DNA of 64,000 nucleotides from Patescibacteria group bacterium (GCA_049318005.1 JBMOHE010000002.1:13824-77823); one strand, 5' to 3'; counted from the stretch's first letter, positions 686 to 61,830 are shown. Notes: a model not told the origin generated them from the letters alone. Translations and numbers: made by a program.

Positions 686-1399
686 TTACTTCTTTAAATA
701 ATATTCCCTATTTTTTGGCTCTAAATGCTCAATTGCATAACGTAGTGCTGTTCTCGGCATCTCCTTTACGTTTTCATCAAGAAATTTTAATAACTTTTTT
801 CTATCAACTCGTTTTCCGACTTCTCTAAGCATCCAACCCACTGCTTTATGCATCAAATCATGCTCATCTTTTAATAACTTCTTAGCTAAATAAAGCGCTT
901 CTTCCGCTCGTCCTTTTTGAATAAAAGCATAAGTTGAAATCATGGCCATGCGCCGCTCCCAAAGATTCTTTGACTCGGCAAGTTTATCTAAAATATCATT
1001 CTTTCCTTCCTCAAGTAATAAATAGTTTCCTAAAATTTTTGCGACTGATAAATCAACCAAATCCCAATTATTAATATGGGTCGTGTGCTTCAAATAAAAT
1101 TTAACGATATTTCCCTTAACTTTTCTATCATCAGTTTTCTCATACTTTTCAACTAAAATGAGTAAGGCCGCTAATCGAAATTCATGATATTTATTTTTTA
1201 ATAATTTCGAAACATCGTCCAAATCTAAAGAAACATATTTCTTAGCAATTTTTCGAGTTACCGGAACCTTAAGGCCTAAAAATACATCGCCATATCCGTA
1301 TTGACCTTTAGCGGTCTTAAAAAAACGCTGTAAATTAGATGCCTGTGGCTTATTTTCAGAAGCCCTTAGCTCTTTTATAATTCCGTTTAAATTAATCAT
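686..1399 (-). CDS. DNA alkylation repair protein (AlkC/AlkD-like HEAT-repeat glycosylase family)
   Basis: N-terminal block NLQRFFKTAKGQYGYGDVFLGLKVPVTRKIAKKY and HEAT-like helical repeats typical of the family. Confidence 0.8.
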   Translation of the reverse strand: MINLNGIIKELRASENKPQASNLQRFFKTAKGQYGYGDVFLGLKVPVTRKIAKKYVSLDLDDVSKLLKNKYHEFRLAALLILVEKYEKTDDRKVKGNIVKFYLKHTTHINNWDLVDLSVAKILGNYLLLEEGKNDILDKLAESKNLWERRMAMISTYAFIQKGRAEEALYLAKKLLKDEHDLMHKAVGWMLREVGKRVDRKKLLKFLDENVKEMPRTALRYAIEHLEPKNREYYLKK

Positions 1400-3795: not shown

Positions 3796-5007
3796 ATGAA
3801 AAATTTAAAAAAAACCGCCGTAAAATCGCTAGTAAACCGTTTCTTAATCTTGTCCTTTTTAATCGCCCTAGTTGGCTCAGTTTCCGCCGCAACCTATGTT
3901 CTATTCTTAAAAAGTAAGGGGCTAGATCTTCTACAAGTAAATATAATTAATGCCTTTTTCATGGCAACGATTATCTTAATGGAGATGCCAACCGGATCAT
4001 TCGCTGATAAATTCGGTCGTCATCGCTCAATCACAGTTAGCTTTTTCTTATTTACGATTGCTCTCGTTACTTATTATTTCGCTGATAGTTTCTGGCTCTT
4101 TATTCTATCTGAAGTAATTGCGGGTCTGGCTCTAACTTTTTCTTCTGGCGCGCTAGAAGCTTGGCTAGTTGATTCACTTAAATTTCACGGTCTTGTTCAT
4201 TTAAAATTTAAATTATTTAGAAAGGAAGCTTACTTTGTTTCGGCCGGATTAGTTATTGGTAGCTTATCAGGATCATATCTTGGTGACTATGACTTATCTT
4301 GGCCTTGGATTTTAGGCGCTATTAGTTCACTATTAGCAGGAATATATTCTTTATCAATTAAAGAAGACTATCACGAAGCAGGAACTAAACGAGTCAAAAC
4401 GGGGCTAATAAAGCAAATAAAAATTGCTAGTCAACATGGTTTCAATAATCGTCATATTGTTATATTTATGTTTCTGGGGGCGATATTTAATCTATCTATT
4501 CAGGCACTTAATATGCAATGGACACTAGTATTTCAAAATGTATACCAAGTTGAAACAAAGTATTTAGGTTGGATATTTGTGGCCACGGCAATAATTATTT
4601 CTCTAGGCAGCACTTTATCTAAATATAGTCTTAAATATATTAAAGATGAGAAGAAATCATTAGCCATCACTCAAATATTAACGGCTATATTTATTATCAT
4701 TCTAGCTTTATCTAGCAATTTAATTATGGCCCTAAGCTTCTTCTTTCTTCATGAACTAACACGTAGTTTCTTCGGTCCTATAAAGAAAAATTTTCTTAAT
4801 GATCACATTCAATCAGAAACCAGGGCGACGGTTCTTTCCCTTGATTCGATGATGGCAAAAGTTGGAAGTTTAATTGGGCTTATTTCAAGTGGCTGGATCG
4901 CTAATAACTATTCAATTAAAACTGCTTGGCTAGCTTCCGGAATATTTCTCTTGGTTGTGCTCCTAGTATTCTTAATAGCAAAACCAAAAAACAAAAACGG
5001 ACTTTAA
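3796..5007 (+). CDS. MFS transporter
   Basis: 403 aa, about 12 predicted TM helices, motif-A-like MPTGSFADKFGRHRS; strong SD upstream. Confidence 0.85.
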   Translation: MKNLKKTAVKSLVNRFLILSFLIALVGSVSAATYVLFLKSKGLDLLQVNIINAFFMATIILMEMPTGSFADKFGRHRSITVSFFLFTIALVTYYFADSFWLFILSEVIAGLALTFSSGALEAWLVDSLKFHGLVHLKFKLFRKEAYFVSAGLVIGSLSGSYLGDYDLSWPWILGAISSLLAGIYSLSIKEDYHEAGTKRVKTGLIKQIKIASQHGFNNRHIVIFMFLGAIFNLSIQALNMQWTLVFQNVYQVETKYLGWIFVATAIIISLGSTLSKYSLKYIKDEKKSLAITQILTAIFIIILALSSNLIMALSFFFLHELTRSFFGPIKKNFLNDHIQSETRATVLSLDSMMAKVGSLIGLISSGWIANNYSIKTAWLASGIFLLVVLLVFLIAKPKNKNGL

Positions 5008-42405: not shown

Positions 42406-45400
42406 TTATTTTAAATCACCCACATCTATTTTTCTAATATTTTCATTACTTATTCCAAGAGATAACTGTCTCATTATTTGATAAGCAGCCTCTCCGTTAG
42501 CGAGATAATATCTGTAACCATCAGTTGGGTTAATATACCAGGCTTCCCCGTTATTTTCTACTTGAAGAACTATTCTGCCTTTTAATCTATTAGTTAGAGC
42601 GGTTGAATAATTAGTATTCTTGATATAATCACTTGGTAAGACAGAAGTAGGAGCAACTGGTATTTTGTTTAAATCGGCATTAGTTATTCCTAACCCAAAC
42701 TTACGTAGAGCTTGATAGGCAGCTGGTCCATCAGCTAGATAATATCTTGATAAAGAGACCTTGTCTAAATACCAGGCTTGGCCTTTAGTTTCTACTTGGA
42801 GTAATATGCGGCCAGCTAGTTTAGTTGAAAGCTTCTTATCTATTATCTTAGATAGTAGTGATCTTTCATATTGATAGATGCTGGAAATATAATTATTAGC
42901 CTGACCATCTTTGGTTGGCTCATTGACTTCTGGGGTAGTAGGGGATCCGCAACTTCTTTCAGTGAGAGCTCTTTGCTCAGCTGTTAGTGAGCAGAAGTTT
43001 GGAGATTTAGCTAGAACGTTTCTAAATTGTTTACCGCCGATACAAGTGGTTTGCCAAGCGTCGTAAGTTACTTCAGAGCAGCTAGAGATAACTAGAGGAG
43101 AATATGAGCTGCCACTTGCAGGGCTAGCTACTGGATTATTACCAGTATAGACAACGTATTCGGAAAAGTGCTTAGTCCAGACAATCAAATCGCTGCCAAC
43201 ATTAATTTTACAATCGCCATTAGCTATTAAGGCGTCACCGTCTAACTGGGAATCACCGGAGCAAGTATTACTAATTGGCCTAAACTCTCCCATATTGTTA
43301 ATAAAGCCAACATTATTACCAGCCTGACCGAAGAATGTCACTCTAACTGCTTTATTTAGAGTTAAGGTGGCGTTAGGGTCGCCGATTTCGAAAATGGAGA
43401 TAATGTCACTAGTTTTAAGAGATATGGACCCCGCTGCTTTTTGCTGAGGCAAACTAAATACCTCCGACCAAGCTAAAGTATTAGCAGTCATAGTTGTTCC
43501 ACTAAATACTTCCAAGCGAATATCTGAGGAGATATTAGCAATTAATTTCTCAGCGAAAGTGACTGTTTTACTACCACTAACAGTTTCAACGACAGAAGAA
43601 AGGTCAAGAGATATTTTATTAACACTATCAACACTACTAATTGTTGTTTGGGCATGCTTCATGTCTGGTGAAAATGCGATAGCTTGTGAATTACTAGTAT
43701 TTATGTATATAGGCTGAACGTTTATTAAAGTAACTGATTTAGCAAAATAGTTAGAGACTAAACCGCTACTATCTTTTGACCAGGCGTAAAGATTGTTTCC
43801 AAACGATGAGGTATAAATATTATTTCCAGATACAGCAATCAGGTCAGAGCCTCTATTAGAAGCAGCGACCAAAGATCCACTAAGGGTAGAATTAAAACTA
43901 GTCCAATTAGCGCCACCATCTAGAGACTGGTAACCATTACTTCCAGACAAAGCTATAATGTGTTTATCATCCTCTCCTGAGATGATAAAGGAATTAATAG
44001 ATGTGTCTTGAATCTTAAACTCTGTCCAAGTATTACCATCGTCTTCTGAAAAATACTTACTATCAACTCCGTCATTATTAACCGTCGCTACTAATTTAGT
44101 TCCGTAAGATGAGTATTTCAAACCGCCGCTAATTAGTGTTCCCGATGGACGAGTCTTTTGCAAATAGTTAACACCACCATCTGTTGACACCCAGATAAAA
44201 TTACCAACTTCAGAATTACCAGCCGCAATTTTTTCACCATTTCTAGTCATTGTGATTGCTAGCCAGTCACTAACAGCCACTGATGAAGAAGCCCAGGTGG
44301 CTCCACTATCACTGGACATATAGATGTCGGTAGCGTTACCAGTAACAACAATCTTTGAGCCATCAGAAGATGAATCTATTACTCTGAAATTTCCAGTAGT
44401 AGCACTAGACCAAGTAGAGCCGCCATTAATAGATTTCGAAACACCGCTTGAACCAGCTAGATATAATTTTAGGCCATCAGCGGAGGCGCCAAGATCATAC
44501 CAAGTACCAGCCTCTGTGCTTACAGAACTCCATATTTGACCATAGTCAGAGGAAGTTGAGATGGTGCTGTTATTTATTAGAGCAAAAATCTTCTTACCAT
44601 CAGCTGCGCTAATTATTTTCTGAATAGCGTTAGAAGTAGTGGTTGATAAAGTCCAGGTAGCTGGATGACTTGGCTTTAGACTACTAAAGGCGTGGCTGGT
44701 TGGCGCCTGAGATCGCCAGCGAGAATTATTAGATAACGGCTTTTGATCTGTTTCGGTTAACAGATAGGCGGCAGCATTAGTTACTGGACTGAGGATTAGA
44801 GAAACAACTGAAGAGCTAGACACAAGAGGAATAGACAAAGAATCGGAATTGGAAGTAACTAAAATTTTCCATTGGCCATAAGCTGTTTCTTCGTTATTAG
44901 TAGCATAGGCACGGTAGTAATAGACAGTACCAGAAGTTAATCCCGACAAATCATATGAATAGTTACTATCAGAGAATGGACTACTTTCTGTAGTAGTGGC
45001 ATAGTTATTAATACTTGCCCCCCAGTTGAATCCTCTAACCGTTGGATCAAAAACATCTACATATTCAATGTTACCATTAATGGTTGCTGAGCTTGATTCT
45101 AGATTAGAAACTTCATCTGTTATTATCTTTTCAGATTTAAACTTGATTATGAAGATATCCATATTTCCATCTGAAACAAGATTAGAAACACCATATCCTG
45201 TGTCAAAATCGACGGTACCAGGAAAATAACCAGTGACATAGACGTTACTCAAAGAATCTACGGTAACTGATTCTCCATAATCATTACTAGTTGCACCAAT
45301 ACTTTTAGCCCAGGCGAATGCTCCATCAGCATTTAATTTAGAGATGAAGATATCTACATTGCCAGCTGAGACAAGATTATAAACACCAGACCCTGGGTCA

Positions 45401-48400
45401 AAATCAACAGTACTAGAAAAAGAACCAGTTGTATAGACATTGCCTGAGAAGTCTACAGTAATTGAATGCCCAGTATCATAACCAGTTCCACCCATCTTTT
45501 TTGCCCAAACAAAATTACCATTACTATCTAATTTTGAGATGAAAATATCATCACTAGCTGAAGTGAGATTATATACCTCCTCTCCTGGATCAAAATCACC
45601 GACGCCACGAAAATAACCAGTAGTATAAATATTACCTAAAGAGTCTACAGTGATTGAGTTTCCTCGATCATCACTAGTTCCGCCCATCTTTTTTGCCCAA
45701 ACAAAATTACCATTACTATCTAATTTTGAGATGAAAATATCATCACTAGCTGAAGTTAGATTATATACCTCCTCTCCTGGATCAAAATCACCCGTACCAG
45801 AAAAATAACCGGCGGTATAGACGTTACCCAAAGAATCTACAGTGATTGAATATCCATGATCATTACTAGTTGAACCAATCTTTTTTGCCCAAACAAAATC
45901 ACCATTATTATCTAACTTTGAAATAAAGATGTCAGCACTACCAGTTGAAACAAGATTGTAAGCGCCAACTCCGGGATCAAAATCAGCGATATAATCAAAA
46001 TAACCAGTGGTATAGATATTGCCCAAAGAATCTATAGTGATTGATTTTCCTGCCTGACCAGAAATTCCGCCAATTTGTTTAACCCAAATAAAATCACCAT
46101 TACTATCTAGTTTTGAAATAAAAATATCACTTTCACCAGATGAAACAAGATTATGTGTCCCCTCTCCTGGATCAAAATCAACGGTACCTCGGAAAGAACC
46201 AGTAGTATAAATATTACCAAAAGAATCTACAGTAATCGAATATCCATGATCATCACTAGTTGAACCCATCTTTTTTGCCCAGGCAAATGTTCCATCGGCG
46301 TTTAATTTAGAGATGAAAATATCTTCATTGCCAGCTGAGACAAGATTATACACGCCAGATCCTGGGTTAAAATCAACAGTATCAGAAAAACTACCAGTAA
46401 TATAAACATTATCCAAAGAATCTACAGTTATTAAGCGTCCATTATCACCACCATTTCCGCCAATCTTTTTTGCCCAAACAAAATTTTGTTCATAATTAGG
46501 GGACTTGGTTTTGAATACCGTCCAATCCCCATAAACAGTGTCTTCATTATTACTAGTAGCGTAAGCCCGATAATAATATATCGTATCAATTTCTAGATCA
46601 GTTAATTCATAAGAAAATGTTCCCGCTCCAAATGTACCATTCTCTGTAGTTGTGGCAAAAGTGCTAGTACTTATTCCCCAATTAAAACCCCTAGTCGTTA
46701 AGACAATTGAGCCTATTCCTAAAATATCACCCCTAAGAATGGCTGTATGTTCATCAATACTGTTTAAAATTAGCGCTTCTACGGAAAAGCTATTAAAAGA
46801 TTTCCACTCGCTATAACTGGTTCCCATATTATCAGTAGCATAGGCCCGGTAATAATATATAGTACCAGGAACAAGATTTGAGAGATTATAAGAATAAGTT
46901 CCTTCGCTGAAAGTGCCATTCTCTGTAGTTGTGGCAAAAGTGCTAGTACTTGTTCCCCAATTAAATCCTCTGACATTCGGATTACTTTCACCAATAGATA
47001 ATATATCGCCATTTAAGATAGCTGAATCTCTATTTAAGCCACCGACAATTGAGTTAAGTTCTAAAACTCTGTTAGTAGTAAACGAAGTCCACTCGCTATA
47101 ACTGGTTCCCATATTATCAGTAGCATAGGCCCGGTAATAATATATAGTACCAGGAACAAGATTTGAGAGATTATAAGAATAAGTTCCTTCGCTGAAAGTG
47201 CCATTCTCTGTAGTTGTGGCAAAAGTGCTAGTACTTGTTCCCCAATTAAATCCTCTGACATTCGGATTACTTTCACCAATAGATAATATGTCGCCATTTA
47301 AGATAGCTGATGATGTGCTAATATTATTAACAGTGGAAGAAACCATAGCTAAATCTATTTTCCGTATTTTTAAAATATAAGCATCAGATAGACCGGCTGA
47401 GACAAGATTGGAAACACCGACCCCTGGGTCAAAATCAACCGTGCCAGAAAAATAACCAGTGGTATAGAGGTTACCCAAAGAATCTACAGTGATTGAATAT
47501 CCATGATCATTATTATTTACACCAATATTCTTAGACCAAATAAAGTTACCACTGCTATCTAATTTAGAGATAAAGACATCGTTGCCGCCATTTGAAGTCA
47601 GATTATATACTCCACTTCCTGGATCAAAATCACCTGTACCAGAAAAATAACCAGTGGCATAGATATTACCCAAAGAATCTACAGTGACTGAGTTTCCTTG
47701 ATTGCTATTAGTTGAAACTATCTTTTTTGCCCAAACAAAAACGCCATTACTGTCTAACTTGAGAACAAAAGTGCCACCGTTCATCAGACTAGAAACACCA
47801 GTTCCTGGGTCAAAATCAACCGTGCCAGAAAAATAACCAGTGGTATAGACATTTCCCGAGGAGTCTAAAACAATTGAAGCCCCTCCATCTACTACAAAAG
47901 ATTTGCCAATTTTCTTATACCAAAGAGAATTCCCATTAATATCTAATTTGGAAATAAATATATCAGATCCATTCTCGCCAGTTATATAGGTATTTCCAGA
48001 TGGATCTACGGTGATTGATTTTCCTTGATTATAATGACCAGCGGTAGATCCGCCTATCTTTTTGGCCCAGGCAAAAGTACCATTAGCATATAGCTTAACG
48101 ATAAAATCAGAGGAGTCATTCGTCGAAGTTAGGTTAAAAACACCAGCTCCCGGATCAAAATCAACGGTGCCTTGAAAAAAGCCAGTGGCATAGATATTAC
48201 CCAAAGAATCTACAGTGACTGAGTTTCCTCGTCCTCCATAAATTCCGCCGCCCATATTCTTAGCCCAAGCGAATGTTCCATCGGTATTTAATTTTGAAAT
48301 GAAAATGGAATCGGCGCCACCAGAAACAAGATTAGAAACACCAGCTCCTGGGTCAAAATCAACGGTGCCATAAAATACACCAGTTGTATAGACATTACCC

Positions 48401-48756
48401 GAGGAATCTAAAACAATTGAATGCCCAGCATCATAACTAGTTCCGCCCATCTTTTTTGCCCAAACAAAATTACCATTACTATCTAATTTTGAAATAAATA
48501 TGTCATAATTACCAGCTGAAACAAGATTAGAAACACCAGCTCCTGGGTCAAAATCAACGGTGCCATAAAATACACCAGTTGTATAGACATTACCCAATGA
48601 GTCTAAAATGATTGAATATCCAATATCATCGCCAGTTCCACCAATCTTTTTAGCCCAATCAACAGCAACATCTTCCGCTAACGCTGGCCTAGAAGAGAAA
48701 AAAATTAGAGCGAAAACTAAAATAAAAAAGCATTTTTTGAAAGTTTTTAAATTCAT
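42406..48756 (-). CDS. Giant secreted surface protein (2116 aa): two SBBP-type beta-propeller repeat arrays, four FN3/Ig-like modules, Asp-box (BNR-like) region, Cys module, two C-terminal ~60-aa repeats
   Basis: Signal peptide ...SSRPALA/EDV; many repeats of the type G.S.D.G.SI.VDS.GN.Y.TG.F.GT.DFDPG....L.S.G..D.FISKL; SxDxGxTW-like boxes (SSDYGQIW, SDSGATW, EDDGNTW, LDGGANW). Confidence 0.85.
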   Translation of the reverse strand: MNLKTFKKCFFILVFALIFFSSRPALAEDVAVDWAKKIGGTGDDIGYSIILDSLGNVYTTGVFYGTVDFDPGAGVSNLVSAGNYDIFISKLDSNGNFVWAKKMGGTSYDAGHSIVLDSSGNVYTTGVFYGTVDFDPGAGVSNLVSGGADSIFISKLNTDGTFAWAKNMGGGIYGGRGNSVTVDSLGNIYATGFFQGTVDFDPGAGVFNLTSTNDSSDFIVKLYANGTFAWAKKIGGSTAGHYNQGKSITVDPSGNTYITGENGSDIFISKLDINGNSLWYKKIGKSFVVDGGASIVLDSSGNVYTTGYFSGTVDFDPGTGVSSLMNGGTFVLKLDSNGVFVWAKKIVSTNSNQGNSVTVDSLGNIYATGYFSGTGDFDPGSGVYNLTSNGGNDVFISKLDSSGNFIWSKNIGVNNNDHGYSITVDSLGNLYTTGYFSGTVDFDPGVGVSNLVSAGLSDAYILKIRKIDLAMVSSTVNNISTSSAILNGDILSIGESNPNVRGFNWGTSTSTFATTTENGTFSEGTYSYNLSNLVPGTIYYYRAYATDNMGTSYSEWTSFTTNRVLELNSIVGGLNRDSAILNGDILSIGESNPNVRGFNWGTSTSTFATTTENGTFSEGTYSYNLSNLVPGTIYYYRAYATDNMGTSYSEWKSFNSFSVEALILNSIDEHTAILRGDILGIGSIVLTTRGFNWGISTSTFATTTENGTFGAGTFSYELTDLEIDTIYYYRAYATSNNEDTVYGDWTVFKTKSPNYEQNFVWAKKIGGNGGDNGRLITVDSLDNVYITGSFSDTVDFNPGSGVYNLVSAGNEDIFISKLNADGTFAWAKKMGSTSDDHGYSITVDSFGNIYTTGSFRGTVDFDPGEGTHNLVSSGESDIFISKLDSNGDFIWVKQIGGISGQAGKSITIDSLGNIYTTGYFDYIADFDPGVGAYNLVSTGSADIFISKLDNNGDFVWAKKIGSTSNDHGYSITVDSLGNVYTAGYFSGTGDFDPGEEVYNLTSASDDIFISKLDSNGNFVWAKKMGGTSDDRGNSITVDSLGNIYTTGYFRGVGDFDPGEEVYNLTSASDDIFISKLDSNGNFVWAKKMGGTGYDTGHSITVDFSGNVYTTGSFSSTVDFDPGSGVYNLVSAGNVDIFISKLNADGAFAWAKSIGATSNDYGESVTVDSLSNVYVTGYFPGTVDFDTGYGVSNLVSDGNMDIFIIKFKSEKIITDEVSNLESSSATINGNIEYVDVFDPTVRGFNWGASINNYATTTESSPFSDSNYSYDLSGLTSGTVYYYRAYATNNEETAYGQWKILVTSNSDSLSIPLVSSSSVVSLILSPVTNAAAYLLTETDQKPLSNNSRWRSQAPTSHAFSSLKPSHPATWTLSTTTSNAIQKIISAADGKKIFALINNSTISTSSDYGQIWSSVSTEAGTWYDLGASADGLKLYLAGSSGVSKSINGGSTWSSATTGNFRVIDSSSDGSKIVVTGNATDIYMSSDSGATWASSSVAVSDWLAITMTRNGEKIAAGNSEVGNFIWVSTDGGVNYLQKTRPSGTLISGGLKYSSYGTKLVATVNNDGVDSKYFSEDDGNTWTEFKIQDTSINSFIISGEDDKHIIALSGSNGYQSLDGGANWTSFNSTLSGSLVAASNRGSDLIAVSGNNIYTSSFGNNLYAWSKDSSGLVSNYFAKSVTLINVQPIYINTSNSQAIAFSPDMKHAQTTISSVDSVNKISLDLSSVVETVSGSKTVTFAEKLIANISSDIRLEVFSGTTMTANTLAWSEVFSLPQQKAAGSISLKTSDIISIFEIGDPNATLTLNKAVRVTFFGQAGNNVGFINNMGEFRPISNTCSGDSQLDGDALIANGDCKINVGSDLIVWTKHFSEYVVYTGNNPVASPASGSSYSPLVISSCSEVTYDAWQTTCIGGKQFRNVLAKSPNFCSLTAEQRALTERSCGSPTTPEVNEPTKDGQANNYISSIYQYERSLLSKIIDKKLSTKLAGRILLQVETKGQAWYLDKVSLSRYYLADGPAAYQALRKFGLGITNADLNKIPVAPTSVLPSDYIKNTNYSTALTNRLKGRIVLQVENNGEAWYINPTDGYRYYLANGEAAYQIMRQLSLGISNENIRKIDVGDLK
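46804..47310 (-). repeat. Intragenic near-perfect tandem duplication, 285-bp period (two FN3-like modules)
   Basis: 46804-47025 and 47089-47310 are nearly identical (one mismatch noticed: ATATATCGCC vs ATATGTCGCC); a diverged third unit lies at about 46505-46790. Confidence 0.85.
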
Positions 48757-49020: not shown

Positions 49021-49965
49021 TTATTCTAAGTCACCAACACCTATCTTTCTAATATTTTCATTACTAATTCCAAGAGATAACTGTCTCATTATTTGATAAG
49101 CAGCCTCTCCACTGGCAAGATAATATCTATAACCATCAGTTGGATTAATGTACCAGGCTTCCCCGTGGTTTTCTACTTGAAGAACTATTCTTCCTTTTAA
49201 TTTATTGGCTAAAGCGGTTGAATAATTTGAACTTTTTACATAATCACTTGGTATCGCTGATTTTGGCGCTACAGGTATTTTAGCGAGATTGACATTATTA
49301 ATACCTAAACCAAACTTACGCAAAGCCTCATAGGCGGTTGGGCCATCAGCTAGGTAATATCTCTGTAGTGACACGGCATCTAAATACCAAGCTTGACCAA
49401 AACGCTCTGTTTGCAGCAATATCCTGCCAGCCAAACGTTTAACTAGGTTTTTATCAATTTTTATTGTTAATTTTTTTTCGTCCAATATAACGCTAGACGT
49501 TTTAGAATTGATAATGTTACCTAAATTTTTTATTTCTAAAATTGATTCAGTGGACGTTGCTTCTTTAAGTATTTGTTCAGTTGATGTGGCTAATTCACAA
49601 ATCCTACTAGATGCTATTTGCTGAATTGTGGTTAATGTACAAGAAGCTGGAGTACTAGTTAAAACTTTACGAAATTGTTGATTGCCAACGCAAGTCTGCC
49701 AAGGAGAATAAGTTATATCCGAACAATAAGTTGTGGCTGGTCCACCACCGCCACCGCCACCTCCTCCGCTTGTAACGGTCGCTGTTTGAGTATATGTAGC
49801 AAAACTAGTAAAATGCTTAGTCCAAATTACTAAATCTGAACCTGAATTTATTTTACAGTCTCCGTCAATAATTAAATTTGCATCTGCCCAAGTTTGAGAG
49901 TTTTCTCCGCAAGCAGTTGATATCTCAGTAAAATCAATTTCTGTTCTTATCATGTTTTCTTGCAT
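49021..49965 (-). CDS. 5'-truncated paralogue of the giant protein C-terminus (314 aa, no signal peptide); possibly a pseudogene or silent cassette
   Basis: Colinear with roughly the last 330 aa of the giant protein (GDCKIN.GSDL..WTKHF, Cys module, two GRI.LQVE..G.AWY repeats); last ~200 nt highly similar at DNA level. Confidence 0.6.
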   Translation of the reverse strand: MQENMIRTEIDFTEISTACGENSQTWADANLIIDGDCKINSGSDLVIWTKHFTSFATYTQTATVTSGGGGGGGGGPATTYCSDITYSPWQTCVGNQQFRKVLTSTPASCTLTTIQQIASSRICELATSTEQILKEATSTESILEIKNLGNIINSKTSSVILDEKKLTIKIDKNLVKRLAGRILLQTERFGQAWYLDAVSLQRYYLADGPTAYEALRKFGLGINNVNLAKIPVAPKSAIPSDYVKSSNYSTALANKLKGRIVLQVENHGEAWYINPTDGYRYYLASGEAAYQIMRQLSLGISNENIRKIGVGDLE

Positions 49966-50055
49966 TTTGGCTTGTTTCCGAGAAGTATCTCGGTCAACAG
50001 CACAAAAAATGTGTTGGCTCCCAGGGTCGGATTCGAACCGACGACCAATTGGTTA

Positions 50056-50621
50056 CACTTATCCAATAGTTTCCTAAAGGGGTGGACTATATCATCATCC
50101 ATACGCTTATGGATGCAAGGCGCTTCGGGCCGTCTACCGACGGACCTACTCCCTTTCGGGATAGTCTCTGAACCTTCCCTAAACTCTAGGGCTTGGCTGC
50201 TGATTACCATATCCTTACAGATTTAGGCTTCCAGACAATTCACCTTGTTTTTCGACCTCAATTACTTGAGGAAGCTGCGTAGAACCTTCGTGCACTTCAC
50301 GATGACAATTTGCACATAATAGCATACATTTATTAAGCTCTTCCTTTATCATTTTCCAACTTCTTGTATATCCTTTTGCAGATATACCAAAATCTTTTTT
50401 ATCAGATTCTAGATGATGGAATTCAAGAGCTTTTAAACATTTACTATAACCACAAACTGAGCATCTACTGCCTTTGTATTCAAGAGATAATTGACGAATC
50501 TTTTTACGTCTTCTATCAACTGCCTGTTTTAAATACTCGGCACGATCGGCATATTTTCTTTTATCTTTTGTCATACAAATATATAAATATATTCATAGTA
50601 GCTAAAGATAAAAAAGAGTTC
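50056..50621 (-). mobile_element. Group I intron (P7.1/P7.2-bearing, IA-like) with HNH ORF in the P1 loop
   Basis: IGS GCAGCT (50273-50278) pairs with exon GGCTGT incl. U.G; P2 CCTCAA-GTAA-TTGAGG; P3 CAAGGTG/CGCCTTG; P6 CCCTA/TAGGG; P7 GACTAT/ATAGTC; P8 CATCCATA-AGCG-TATGGATG; GTTCAGAGACTA and GATATAGTCC core elements; omega-G 50056. Confidence 0.8.
50215..50574 (-). CDS. Intron-encoded HNH endonuclease (119 aa)
   Basis: CSVCGY...LEFHHL...NKCMLLCANCHREVH (CxxC...HH...N...CxxCH HNH motif); last ~35 codons overlap IGS, P2, P3, P4; stop codon in L5. Confidence 0.85.
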   Translation of the reverse strand: MTKDKRKYADRAEYLKQAVDRRRKKIRQLSLEYKGSRCSVCGYSKCLKALEFHHLESDKKDFGISAKGYTRSWKMIKEELNKCMLLCANCHREVHEGSTQLPQVIEVEKQGELSGSLNL

Positions 50622-50708
50622 ACAGCCAACTGCGCTACCGCTGCGCTACCTGGGAATATTAAGTTGTCTCAAAAAAACAAAAATGTTTTTTAAACATCTT
50701 ACTATCAT

Positions 50709-50736
50709 ATTTTAGCAGATGCCAATATTATGTCAA
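50709..50736 (-). promoter_or_regulatory. Candidate promoter of the tRNA-Asn gene
   Basis: Minus strand TTGACA-16 nt-TAAAAT, about 50 nt upstream of tRNA position 1. Confidence 0.5.
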
Positions 50737-50798: not shown

Positions 50799-50827
50799 TT
50801 GACATTTTAGTATAAATATGTTATAAT
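50799..50827 (+). promoter_or_regulatory. Perfect consensus sigma-70 promoter
   Basis: TTGACA-17 nt-TATAAT, 50 nt upstream of ATG 50878. Confidence 0.7.
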
Positions 50828-50877: not shown

Positions 50878-51186
50878 ATGGAACAATCAATAAGCATTAT
50901 TCTTGCAATTTTACTCCTTGTGTTTATCTTCAGCCCTGGTAAGAATACCAGCAAGCACCTTAAGGGAATTAAACTTCCCTCCTGGGCCAAACGCTTAAAA
51001 TCATCTGATAGATGGACAATCAGCGGACGCGAAATATTCGCACGTCTTCGCCTGGTAAAATGGTTCCTGCTCGCAATCCTTAAATTAGCGCTCATTAGTC
51101 TTTCTTTGACTATTGCTCTTTTAAAGGTTTCATTGTCGGCAGCGATAAATCTCATGCCGGGAGTAAAAAAAGTTGCTAAACCATAG
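50878..51186 (+). CDS. Small membrane protein (102 aa), hypothetical
   Basis: Preferred over the antisense 116-aa ORF: consensus promoter upstream, terminator just downstream, hydrophobic N-terminal helix. Confidence 0.45.
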   Translation: MEQSISIILAILLLVFIFSPGKNTSKHLKGIKLPSWAKRLKSSDRWTISGREIFARLRLVKWFLLAILKLALISLSLTIALLKVSLSAAINLMPGVKKVAKP

Positions 51187-58612: not shown

Positions 58613-60004
58613 TTAAAACTCAGCATTCTTAGGCGTACGTGGAAAAGGAATAACATCACGAATATTGGCCATGCCAGAAAAATACATAATCAATCTTTCA
58701 AAACCAAGCCCAAAGCCAGCATGCTTAACTGATCCAAAGCGACGTAAATCTAAATACCAGTCATAATCTTCTTGAGACAAACCAAGTTCTTCCATTCTTT
58801 TAATTAAAACTTCTAAACGTTCCTCTCTCTGACTACCGCCAATAATTTCACCAATTCCAGGAACAAGTAAATCAACAGCCGCTACAGTTTTATTATCATC
58901 ATTAAGGCGCATGTAAAAAGCTTTAATTTCTTTTGGATAGTCAGTTAAAAAAACTGGACCACCTACGACCTCTTCACAAAGATAACGTTCATGTTCAGTT
59001 TGCAAATCAATCCCCCAAGAAACCGGATATTCAAATTTCTTCCCACTCTTTTCTAAAATATCTATTCCCTCCGTATAAGTCATGCGACGGAAATCAGAGT
59101 TAGCAATTTTATTTAATCTTTCAAGTAAAGTGTTATCAATAAATTTATCAAAGAATTCCATCTCTTCAGGAATTTCTTTTAAGACATAATTAATTAAATA
59201 TTTAATCATTTTTTCTTCCATATCCATATCATCATTAATATCGGCGAAAGCCATTTCTGGTTCCATCATCCAAAATTCAGAAGCGTGACGAGTTGTGTAA
59301 GAATTTTCAGCTCTAAAAGTTGGGCCGAATGTATAAACCTTATCAAGGCCCATAACTAATGCTTCAGCATTTAATTGACCACTAACAGTTAAACCCGCTT
59401 TTTTACCAAAAAAATCTTCTTTGTAATCAATTTCTCCTTTATCATCAGTCTTTGGTTTTTTCAAATCAAGAGTAGTTACTTGAAACATTTCGCCCGCTCC
59501 TTCAGCATCGCTAGTTGAAATTATTGGTGTATGAATATAAGAAAAACCTTGTTCTTGAAAAAACTTATGAATCGCATAGCTAAGAGTTGAACGAAGACGA
59601 AAAACCGCTGAAAAAGTATTGCTTCGTCCACGTAAATGAGCGATGGTTCTTAGAAATTCAAAACTATGTTTCTTTTTCTGAAGAGGATAATTTTCTGGGG
59701 CTAAACTAATAATAGTAATTTTGGTTGCTTTAAGTTCAAAAGCCTGACCAGCGGCCGGCGATTCAACTAAATCACCTTCAATTTCAAGTGAAGAACCAAC
59801 ACTAACTTTTTCTACTTCAGAGAAATTATTTAAATTATTATCAAATACGATTTGCAATCCCTTAAAGAAAGAACCATCATTTAATTCAATAAAACCAAAT
59901 TCCTTTGAGCTTCTTGACGTTCTTACCCAACCAGAAACTAAAATATTTTTTCCTAAATATTTTTCTGTTTCACGATATAATGATTTGATTATAATTTTTG
60001 ACAT
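58613..60004 (-). CDS. asnS: Asparagine--tRNA ligase
   Basis: [69 protein letters not shown], close to remembered E. coli AsnS blocks. Confidence 0.95.
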
Positions 60005-60033: not shown

Positions 60034-61830
60034 TTATTTGTTTTTTACTTCTTTGATATTTATTGAGAGTTCATCAAGTTGATTAGGATAAACTTCGCTC
60101 GGACTATCCATCATTAAATCTTTTCCATTTCCATCTTTTGGAAAAGCATAAATATCGCGAATAGAATCCCAATCATTTAAAACCATCAGTATTCTGTCGA
60201 CGCCAGGCGCATTACCTCCATGAGGTGGGGCGCCATAAGAGAAAGCGTTAATCATTCCACCGAATCTATTATCGACTTCCTCACGACTATAACCAGCGAT
60301 CTTAAAAGCTTCATACATTATTTCTGGTTCATGATTACGAATAGCGCCGCTTGAAACTTCAAAGCCATTTAAAACTAAATCAAATTGAAAAGCTAAAATA
60401 TCAAGTGGATTTTTTTCTTGCAAAGATTTTAAACCACCTTGAGGCATGGAAAAAGGGTTGTGACCGAAATCAATTCTTCCCTCTTCGATATCTGAATAAT
60501 CATACATCGGGAAATCAACTACCCAGGCCCAAGCCGCTTTAGAATTATCCTTAAGACCTAAGCGTGTTGCTACTTCATTTCTAATAACGCCTAAGACATT
60601 ACAAGCTGTTCGCCAAACGTCAGCCGCAAAGAAAACAATATCGCCTTCTTTAACTTCACATTCTAGGGCTAAAGAATTTAATTTCTCTGGGCTTAAAAAT
60701 TTTGCAAATGGTGAATTCAAAGCTCCTTCTTTCATCGATAAATAAGCCAAGCCTTTAGCGCCACGTTTTTTTGCAATTTCGGTTAATTCATCAATTTCTT
60801 TACGAGTAAACTTTGCCCCGCCATCAATTTTCAAAGCATGGACAACGCCATTATTTTTAATTGCTTCTTCAAAAACACTAAAACCGCAATCAGCAACTAA
60901 ATCACTAACATTTTTAATTTCTAAATCAAATCGTAAGTCTGGCTTATCAACACCATATCTTTCCATTGATTCCTTCCAAGACAATCTTTTAAAGCGACCG
61001 GAATCTAAAAGTCCAACAATTTTCTTTTCACTAAATTTATCAGTTAAATTTTTTGCGAATGGTTCCATTAAAGCAAAGATATCTTCTTGATCAACAAAAC
61101 TCATTTCAATATCTAATTGATAAAATTCGCCATAGGCCCTATCCATACGTGGATCCTCATCTCTAAAGCATGGGGCAATTTGAAAATATTTATCAATCCC
61201 GCCCACCATTAATAATTGTTTGAATTGCTGAGGCGACTGAGGGAGAGCATAAAACTTACCTGGATATAAACGAGAAGGGACTAAAAAATCACGTGCCCCT
61301 TCAGGAGATGAATTGGCTAAAATAGGAGTCTGGACTTCAATAAAACCATTATCATGGAAATACTCCCTGCAATAAGTAAAAAACTTATCTTTAACGGCTA
61401 ACATTTTCTGAAGTTTAGGGCGTCGCAAATCTAAATAACGATATTTTAATCTTAAGGCTTCATTGGCCTCACCATTTTTATCTTCATTAAGCTCAAAAGG
61501 CATAACCTGAGCCTCACTTAAAACTTCAATACTTGAAATAATTATTTCAATTTCGCCAGTGGCTATTTTTTTATTCTGCATTTCCTGTGGTCTAGCTTCA
61601 ACATAACCTATAATTTTTACAACCCATTCGGAATGTAATTTTTCTGCAATCTCAGCCGCCTCTTTATTTGTAGTAGGATCAAGTTTGGCTTGAGTTATGC
61701 CATAGCGATCGCGCAAATCAATAAAAATCAAACCACCTAGATTACGCGCACTAGCCACCCAGCCAGACAAAGTTACAGTCTCGCCAACATGACCCGTATT
61801 TAATTCTCCGCAAGTATGAGTTCTTAACAT
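60034..61830 (-). CDS. aspS: Aspartate--tRNA ligase (bacterial type with insertion domain)
   Basis: [10 protein letters not shown] start, [11 protein letters not shown] motif 2, GGLAYGVDR-like [11 protein letters not shown] motif 3. Confidence 0.95.

Follow-up and report, generated by a model that had tools for sequence, protein, structure and literature searches.

The window analyzed here is a 64,000-nucleotide (64-kb) stretch of a Patescibacteria group bacterium genome (GCA_049318005.1, JBMOHE010000002.1:13824-77823). It carries on its minus strand a tRNA-Asn(GUU) gene divided into two exons by a 566-nucleotide (nt) group I intron, which holds an open reading frame (ORF) for an HNH endonuclease. 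The 5' exon (50622..50655; TCCCAGG-TA-GCGC-AGCGGTA-GCGC-A-GTTGG-CTGT) contains an acceptor strand, the D arm, the 5' strand of the anticodon stem and the bases C32-U33-G34-U35, of which U35, at position 50622, is the last base of the exon. The 3' exon (50015..50055; TAA-CCAAT-TGGTC-GTCGG-TTCGAAT-CCGAC-CCTGGGA-G-CCA) contains U36-A37-A38, the 3' strand of the anticodon stem, the variable loop, the T arm, the other acceptor strand, G73 and an encoded CCA. The joined exons give a 75-nt cloverleaf which ARAGORN identified as tRNA-Asn(GTT), with the anticodon loop CU-GUU-AA, and the interruption is located between anticodon positions 35 and 36. Re-reading of the sequence showed that all coordinates of the two halves in the original prediction, made from the sequence alone, were correct, and the cloverleaf agrees with its statement that the acceptor and anticodon stems form on joining. 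Applied to the whole window, ARAGORN reported zero tRNAs in its default mode, and in intron mode it called this gene Thr(UGU), as it did in about half of the related loci.

A putative sigma-70-like promoter, TTGACA-16-TAAAAT with a TG extension (50709..50736, minus strand), matches 11 of the 12 consensus positions and precedes the 5' end of the tRNA by about 50 nt. A comparable promoter precedes the uninterrupted tRNA-Asn allele of locus L156, described below. At the exon-intron border, the 5' strand of the anticodon stem and the first intron bases (50612-50634, minus strand) may fold into a hairpin, CGCAG-TTGG-CTGTG, which is followed by the U-rich run AACTCTTTTTT and resembles a terminator. 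One such site was found where 0.4 were expected by chance, and it may be nothing.

Ribozyme core and subgroup of the intron

The intron extends over 50056..50621 on the minus strand. The Rfam model Intron_gpI (RF00028) matches positions 50293..50063 along its full length (model positions 1-253) with a score of 90.2 bits against a gathering score of 50 (E 9e-22); this is the sole Rfam match in the 64 kb and agrees with the group I intron originally predicted at the locus. The helices of the window copy were projected onto an alignment of 67 copies that runs from the guide sequence to the 3' exon. Across 13 helices and 65 pairs, 91.5% of the cells were standard-paired, compared with 33-45% when the partners were slid by 1-3 columns. 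Both-sided changes were found in 53 of the 65 pairs, and 0 of 500 shuffles attained the observed values. The compensatory changes preserve the P3-P8 core, including the P3/P7 pseudoknot.

The internal guide sequence (IGS), GCAGCT (50273..50278, minus strand), was read directly from the sequence and pairs with the exon bases GGCUGU, so that U35 (50622) is opposite G50278 and forms the U.G pair at the splice site. Its GCAGC part pairs with C32-U33-G34-U35 and, in the window copy, also with G31. GCAGC is invariant in the 67 sequences, and the exon-terminal U and the intron-terminal G, at 50056 in the window, are likewise invariant in the relatives; the guide pairing and the terminal G had both been named in the original prediction. 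The same GCAGC motif is found 5 nt after the splice site in an ORF-less intron whose splicing has been shown experimentally. Covariation of the guide sequence with exon position 31, which is G, A or C in the relatives, was sought among them and not found, the IGS being constantly GCAGC(T). P1 rests on 4-5 invariant pairs and is beyond proof by covariation, because the anticodon loop is fixed.

After the guide sequence, the P2 hairpin CCTCAA-GTAA-TTGAGG (50256..50271) shows compensatory changes in all six of its pairs and is paired in 99.5% of cells. The next segment (50172..50247) contains the 5' strand of P3 (50247-50241), J3/4 AAT and the P4-P5-P5a-P6-P6a domain, with 94-99% pairing and 80% in P5a; P5 bears the P5a hairpin with its GUAA tetraloop, and P6 is a 2-bp stem (CC/GG) that closes P6a. 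Covariation also supports the two remaining segments. The first (50116..50166) contains the 5' strand of P7, GACTA (50166-50162), P7.1 (50161-50150), P7.2 (50146-50127) and the 3' strand of P3, CGCCTTG (50122-50116). The second (50056..50115) contains P8 (50115-50096), J8/7, the 3' strand of P7, TAGTC (50089-50085), and P9 with a GAAA loop (50080-50063), after which the tail ATAAGTG ends in the terminal G. All these elements are on the minus strand. P2, P3, J3/4 AAT and P8 stand as originally named, with compensatory changes in the three helices. P6, P7, P7.1 and P7.2 were also proposed as helices that covariation supports, but their limits had to be redrawn: the proposed P6 is P6a, P7 is a 5-bp helix (GACTA/TAGTC) and the T that follows it opens P7.1 (TCCC-GAAA-GGGA), and P7.2 is an 8-bp helix reaching GGTCCGTC/GACGGCCC, both hairpins being longer than proposed.

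Introns of subgroup IA are marked by two extra hairpins, P7.1 and P7.2, that separate P7 from the 3' strand of P3. The window intron has both at this location, with covariation in all 12 of their pairs, and on this predicted fold it is assigned to subgroup IA and not to the Tetrahymena- or Azoarcus-like subgroup IC. The resemblance of its core strings to the Tetrahymena and Azoarcus introns, suggested originally, is not upheld by this assignment. The window intron is identical to the experimentally spliced intron of GCA_016700035.1 in 169 of 252 aligned columns.

The HNH gene and intron-bearing relatives

The HNH endonuclease ORF (50215..50574, minus strand) encodes 119 amino acid residues plus a stop codon and is located in the P1 loop (L1), between the 5' splice site and the ribozyme core. 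In the published ORF-less relatives (Table S3), the guide sequence follows the splice site after only 4-28 nt of L1, so that the HNH gene is an insertion in this loop. The protein shows the motif CxxC...HH...N...CxxCHxxxH, with the two CxxC zinc ligand pairs and the catalytic His and Asn of the beta-beta-alpha-metal fold. Among 24 sequences, C38, C41, H53, H54, C87, C90, H91 and H95 are invariant and N89 is kept in at least 90%; several close homologues have a precomputed match to the Pfam HNH family (PF01844). The conserved part of the protein ends at about residues 97-102. The ratio of nonsynonymous to synonymous substitution rates (dN/dS) over codons 1-97 has a median of 0.10 against 26 relatives and is 0.18 against the closest relative, L001; these low values indicate that the endonuclease is under purifying selection.

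The last 22 codons overlap the IGS, P2, P3, P4 and P5; codons T99-Q100-L101 are the guide sequence itself, and the stop codon TAA is inside the GUAA tetraloop of P5a. The original prediction of a 119-residue HNH protein that fills L1 and reads through the IGS and P2-P4 is correct, except that the stop codon is in the L5a GUAA loop and not in L5. In window 50215-50290, the tail that follows TQLP is ribozyme P2-P5 read in frame, and since it covaries as RNA in P2 it represents read-through into the ribozyme and not a constrained peptide. The stop position varies among homologues, giving proteins of 102, 108, 116, 119 residues and other lengths. A large protein collection contains 1730 homologues, mostly unnamed, the named ones belonging chiefly to Patescibacteria metagenome-assembled genomes and a few to other phyla; the exact window protein is on record only in two Logan assemblies. 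A PDB sequence search with the HNH protein gave insignificant matches only (E of at least 0.2).

A tRNA-Asn intron at position 35/36 with an HNH gene is already known, having been published in 2025-2026, and the arrangement is not the novelty that the original prediction took it for. Nakagawa, Amikura, Omae and Suzuki (mSystems 2026, PMC13011429; bioRxiv July 2025, 10.1101/2025.07.03.662931) described subgroup IA introns at position 35/36 of tRNA-Asn(GUU) in Patescibacteria, showed precise self-splicing at 35/36 in vitro with the ligated exons sequenced as Asn, and found that a terminal-G mutant blocks exon ligation. HNH (PF01844) genes were present in four of their 15 tRNA-Asn introns; annotation tools missed such genes or mis-called them Thr(UGU) by a 2-nt shift, and in complete Patescibacteria genomes the intron-bearing tRNA-Asn was normally the sole copy. 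Endonuclease-bearing 35/36 IA introns were found only in Patescibacteria among the complete genomes surveyed, from which limited horizontal transfer was inferred. The same paper refers to the tFind study, in whose catalogue these introns had previously appeared as "Asn.4Ug". The window intron shares with these introns the host tRNA, the insertion site, the IGS and P1, the core strings GGTTCAGAGACTA and GATATAGTCC and the ARAGORN mis-call as Thr(UGU) by 2 nt, and when the HNH-bearing introns of that study are compared with the window the HNH proteins begin alike (MPDTRTYADRREYLKRA versus MTKDKRKYADRAEYLKQA). It differs from the copy tested in vitro, which has no ORF and has a different P7.1/P7.2 region, and the genome that carries it is a different one, Falkowbacteria-like and uncultured.

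Self-splicing group I introns in bacterial anticodon loops are also found in cyanobacterial tRNA-fMet (I-Ssp6803I), tRNA-Leu(UAA), tRNA-Ile(CAU) and tRNA-Arg(CCU), and the tRNA-fMet intron has, like the window intron, its own homing endonuclease gene. However, those introns interrupt other tRNAs, at positions 33/34, 34/35 and 36/37, and are mostly of subgroup IC3, and I-Ssp6803I is a PD-(D/E)XK enzyme, whereas the window endonuclease is of the HNH type (in part from PMC13011429).

A scan of GTDB, with one genome per species, found at least 587 stretches encoding an HNH relative, of which the best 80 were examined (compared loci are given as L numbers). In 78 of these the HNH gene is inside an interrupted tRNA, and the other two are cut by contig ends. 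Outside Patescibacteria, the 78 loci include HNH-bearing tRNA-Asn introns in Acidobacteriota (L058, L075, L051, L052 and L069), Elusimicrobia (L041, L047, L055, L060, L064, L076 and L078), Nitrospira (L067), Acetothermia (L068) and Aerophobetes (L046). L058 is a complete 5.5-Mb Pyrinomonadaceae chromosome that carries the HNH-intron-tRNA-Asn unit, and Intron_gpI scores range between 70 and 87 bits in eight non-Patescibacteria loci. This presence across phyla goes beyond the published complete-genome survey. The rpoD-tRNA-Asn synteny of many TPA_asm records that bear the label "uncultured Gammaproteobacteria" suggests that they are mislabelled Patescibacteria. The split tRNA-Asn of L079 (Peregrinibacteria, OY970195.1), which goes with an HNH relative, has a 511-nt insert that gave no Intron_gpI match at the gathering score; it may have a divergent core of the kind that RF00028 misses according to PMC13011429.

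Intron-less alleles, splice junction and interpretation

When metagenome contigs were scanned for an exact pattern of the joined anticodon arm, at least 120 uninterrupted genes were found. Three of them are close to the joined exons of the window: L107 (2036-2107) is identical at 73 of 75 positions, L156 (1512-1583) at 72 of 75 and L189 (about 4640-4715) at 71 of 75. The two differences between L107 and the window form a compensatory pair in the acceptor stem, and in 15 intron-bearing loci the joined exons have exactly the L107 sequence. The intron-less alleles have an Rfam tRNA score of 71.5 bits, and rpoD is located just upstream of tRNA-Asn in L107, L156 and L189, matching the layout of the window. 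They are natural intron-less alleles at the same locus, of the kind that the original prediction proposed to look for in related genomes, and show a presence/absence polymorphism of the intron. At the syntenic site, intron-less genes that share the window's backbone have the sequence CTGTTAA, which fixes the exon junction independently. The C-terminal 255 residues of the L156 RpoD are 99% identical to those of the window, nearer than in any intron-bearing locus, and as this closest relative has no intron, the intron was gained or lost very recently in the lineage. By RpoD similarity (L013, L003 and L006), the window host appears to be a Falkowbacteria-like Patescibacterium; the window GC content is 34.5%.

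With these results, we consider it very probable that a mobile group I intron of subgroup IA splits the tRNA-Asn(GUU) gene between U35 and U36 and that its HNH protein is the homing endonuclease. The precursor would be transcribed from the promoter at about 50736, and P1 would form between the exon end (G)GCUGU and the guide GCAGCU, about 340 nt further downstream, placing U35.G at the site of cleavage. P7 would bind an external guanosine that attacks after U35, and the terminal G (50056) would then replace this guanosine, so that the exons are ligated with the loop CU-GUU-AA. The 119-residue HNH protein would cut intron-less tRNA-Asn genes, into which the intron would be copied by repair. One RNA is expected either to be translated or to fold as a ribozyme, but not both, since the ORF spans the guide sequence and P2-P5. 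Phage subgroup IA introns with HNH or GIY-YIG endonucleases include those of T4 td, nrdB and nrdD and of the SPO1 and SP82 DNA polymerase genes (I-HmuI and I-HmuII). They resemble the window intron in having P7.1/P7.2 and an endonuclease ORF looped out from a peripheral element, and a conflict between ORF translation and ribozyme folding is known there. They differ in interrupting protein-coding genes and in that the ORF is usually in the loops of P6, P8 or P9, and not in L1, and is not known to include the guide sequence.

Several observations weigh against a functional mobile intron at this site. The Pfam HNH score (PF01844) of the window protein is 20.1 bits, slightly under the cut-off of 21.4, and a Shine-Dalgarno sequence is not evident before the ORF. 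P9 (CCTTTAG-GAAA-CTATTGG) has two U.U mismatches in the window copy. P10 was sought between the 3' exon bases UAACC and the bases 5' of the IGS, and none was credible; it was dropped because the GGTT of the window, which encodes E-G codons, is not conserved in the relatives. Finally, the search for an uninterrupted tRNA-Asn gene covered the 64 kb of the window, where none was found, and such a copy may exist elsewhere in the genome.

The alternative raised in the original prediction was a tRNA-Thr(UGU) host with the intron at 33/34, for which the splice sites would be two bases upstream (CT|GTG...AAG|TGTAACC). ARAGORN intron mode returns this call for the window and, as said above, elsewhere, and in the window copy a U precedes the 5' site and a G precedes the 3' site whichever junction is taken. 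Across the relatives, however, the two junctions part. In 78 of the 78 related loci, CTGT closes the 5' exon and TAA, immediately preceded by a G, opens the 3' exon, while the two bases that precede this terminal G differ (GTG, TTG, ATG, GCG, TCG, CTG and ACG), so that with the Thr junction the intron would often end in T, A or C, or other anticodons would result. Only U35|U36 keeps the exon-terminal U and the intron-terminal G in every copy, which makes it the Asn junction and the Thr(UGU) call an artefact of sequence ambiguity in the lineage. With the guide GCAGC, moreover, the U.G pair is formed by U35 only, U33 being opposite A. Bacterial tRNA-Asn is characterized by U1-A72 and G73, which are not Thr features, and the U1-A72 pair and G73 were present in all copies compared; together with the near-identity to the intron-less L107, this sustains the likeness to tRNA-Asn noticed originally. 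The intron-less genes with the same backbone read GTT, and sequencing of the ligated exons of a homologue gave Asn, the same tool error being documented there (PMC13011429). The Thr candidate was dropped on these comparative grounds, and we regard it as extremely improbable; the 78 loci and the intron-less CTGTTAA genes settle the preference of the original prediction for Asn.

It is very unlikely, although somewhat less so, that the intron is a dead relic and the split gene a pseudogene, with an intact tRNA-Asn elsewhere that serves translation. The imperfect P9 and the absence of P10 in the window copy would suit a relic, but the catalytic-core helices, the U.G pair, the terminal G and both exons are all intact, the promoter precedes the gene, the HNH ORF is intact and constrained, and the intron-bearing tRNA-Asn is normally the sole copy in complete Patescibacteria genomes (PMC13011429). 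We also consider unlikely, with a little more room for it, that the HNH protein is a splicing helper (maturase) or some other nuclease and not a tRNA-Asn homing endonuclease, the intron being only vertically inherited. Against this, at least six phyla have the HNH-intron unit in their tRNA-Asn genes, in settings that are unrelated, the intron is missing from L156, the nearest relative by RpoD, ORF-less versions splice unaided (PMC13011429), and free-standing relatives flank phage tRNA-Asn genes, as homing endonucleases typically do with their targets.

Because standard tRNA finders overlook this gene or mis-name it tRNA-Thr, tRNA-Asn would be counted as absent from such a genome and its completeness misjudged; if the gene is the sole copy, all asparagine decoding relies on a ribozyme. 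The spread across phyla, the syntenic empty sites and the phage relatives together make a testable case for the assembly and movement of mobile group I introns.

Free-standing phage relatives and neighbouring genes

HNH relatives were found in 445 deposited phage genomes and in at least 573 stretches of viral (IMG/VR) contigs, of which the best 80 (L203-L282) were examined and represent 64 distinct loci. The viral proteins are 46-64% identical over residues of about 17-100 and their genes stand free within tRNA arrays. On at least one side, the nearest tRNA gene is tRNA-Asn(GTT) in 44 of the 64 distinct loci, the HNH gene being in some cases flanked by two of them, while tRNA-Asn accounts for 55 of the 446 tRNAs in them. 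In Cronobacter phage CR3 (L283, NC_017974.1 145846-146292) the HNH gene starts 18 nt after tRNA-Asn, and in Bacillus phage Bastille (L284, NC_018856.1 5857-6685) it is flanked by two tRNA-Asn genes. This position of free-standing relatives beside phage tRNA-Asn points to tRNA-Asn DNA as the target of the family. A limited literature search gave nothing specific on an association of HNH and tRNA-Asn in phages.

Two viral contigs show a tRNA-Asn split at 35/36 by an ORF-less group I intron, of 206 nt in L217 (517-1150; Intron_gpI 67.4 bits) and of 194 nt in L253 (1908-2764; 54.1 bits). A free-standing HNH gene, encoding 120 residues in L217 and 175 in L253 with a different N-terminus, is located directly upstream of each split tRNA-Asn. 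Both introns were missed by the Rfam gathering mode on the whole loci and were above threshold as short stretches, so that two of 64 viral loci with an adjacent ORF-less intron is a lower bound. As judged from gene order, this layout is the one expected of an intermediate before the endonuclease gene enters the intron. One viral contig (L203) has the intron-borne HNH form. In a rough tree generated by the neighbor-joining method, 75 intron-borne HNH proteins form one clade apart from 58 viral ones. On phage contig L271, which also bears an HNH relative, a sub-threshold Intron_gpI match (1138-1360, minus strand, 33.9 bits) is located inside a tRNA-Leu(TAA) that ARAGORN reports with a 687-nt insert.

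We give an even chance to the proposal that the intron HNH belongs to an endonuclease family dedicated to tRNA-Asn with three natural states: free-standing in phages, beside an ORF-less intron, and inside the P1 loop. The first state would be represented by the HNH genes next to uninterrupted phage tRNA-Asn (the 44 of 64 contigs and the cultured phages CR3 and Bastille), the second by those upstream of the ORF-less 35/36 introns of L217 and L253, and the third by the genes inside the P1 loop of the tRNA-Asn intron in bacteria of at least six phyla. The pattern appears to fit a published model of endonuclease capture, by which an initially free-standing enzyme with the insertion site as its target is later taken up by the intron. 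If true, the family would offer a living series for the capture of an insertion-site-targeting homing endonuclease by an intron, and the tRNA-Asn intron would be far more horizontally mobile than the complete-genome survey concluded. Cyanophage F-CphI is reportedly a free-standing endonuclease that goes with a psbA intron. Other free-standing homing endonucleases are T4 SegB, in a tRNA cluster (PMC2330249), and T4 MobE, with I-TevIII (PMC2790892). The free-standing HNH relatives in phage tRNA arrays resemble these three systems, and two contigs show the layout of "collaborative homing"; SegB, however, is a GIY-YIG enzyme.

About 8 kb from the tRNA-Asn gene, as stated in the original prediction, the window encodes AsnS, the asparagine--tRNA ligase (58613-60004, minus strand; NCBIfam NF003037, 686 bits with a cut-off of 414), which needs tRNA-Asn as substrate. 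AspS (60034-61830) adjoins it, and the AsnS/AspS profile search also gave NF001750 with 792 bits. Directly downstream of the tRNA gene is a gene for a 314-residue protein (49021-49965, minus strand) with no Pfam or NCBIfam match; it contains nine consecutive glycines and, towards its C-terminus, two repeat modules, …GRILLQTERFGQAWYLD…RYYL and …GRIVLQVENHGEAWYINP…RYYL. On the other side, a perfect consensus promoter, TTGACA-17-TATAAT with an upstream TG (50799-50827, plus strand; 12 of 12 positions), is directed away from the tRNA, and downstream of it a 102-residue hydrophobic ORF (50878-51186, plus strand), which is a called gene on a Logan contig, is located between the tRNA gene and rpoD. 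A further gene of the window (42406-48756, minus strand) encodes a protein of 2116 residues, a giant of surface type for so small a genome, which has SBBP beta-propeller repeats (LipL53-like; 291 bits, under the cut-off) and a segment resembling glycosylhydrolases.

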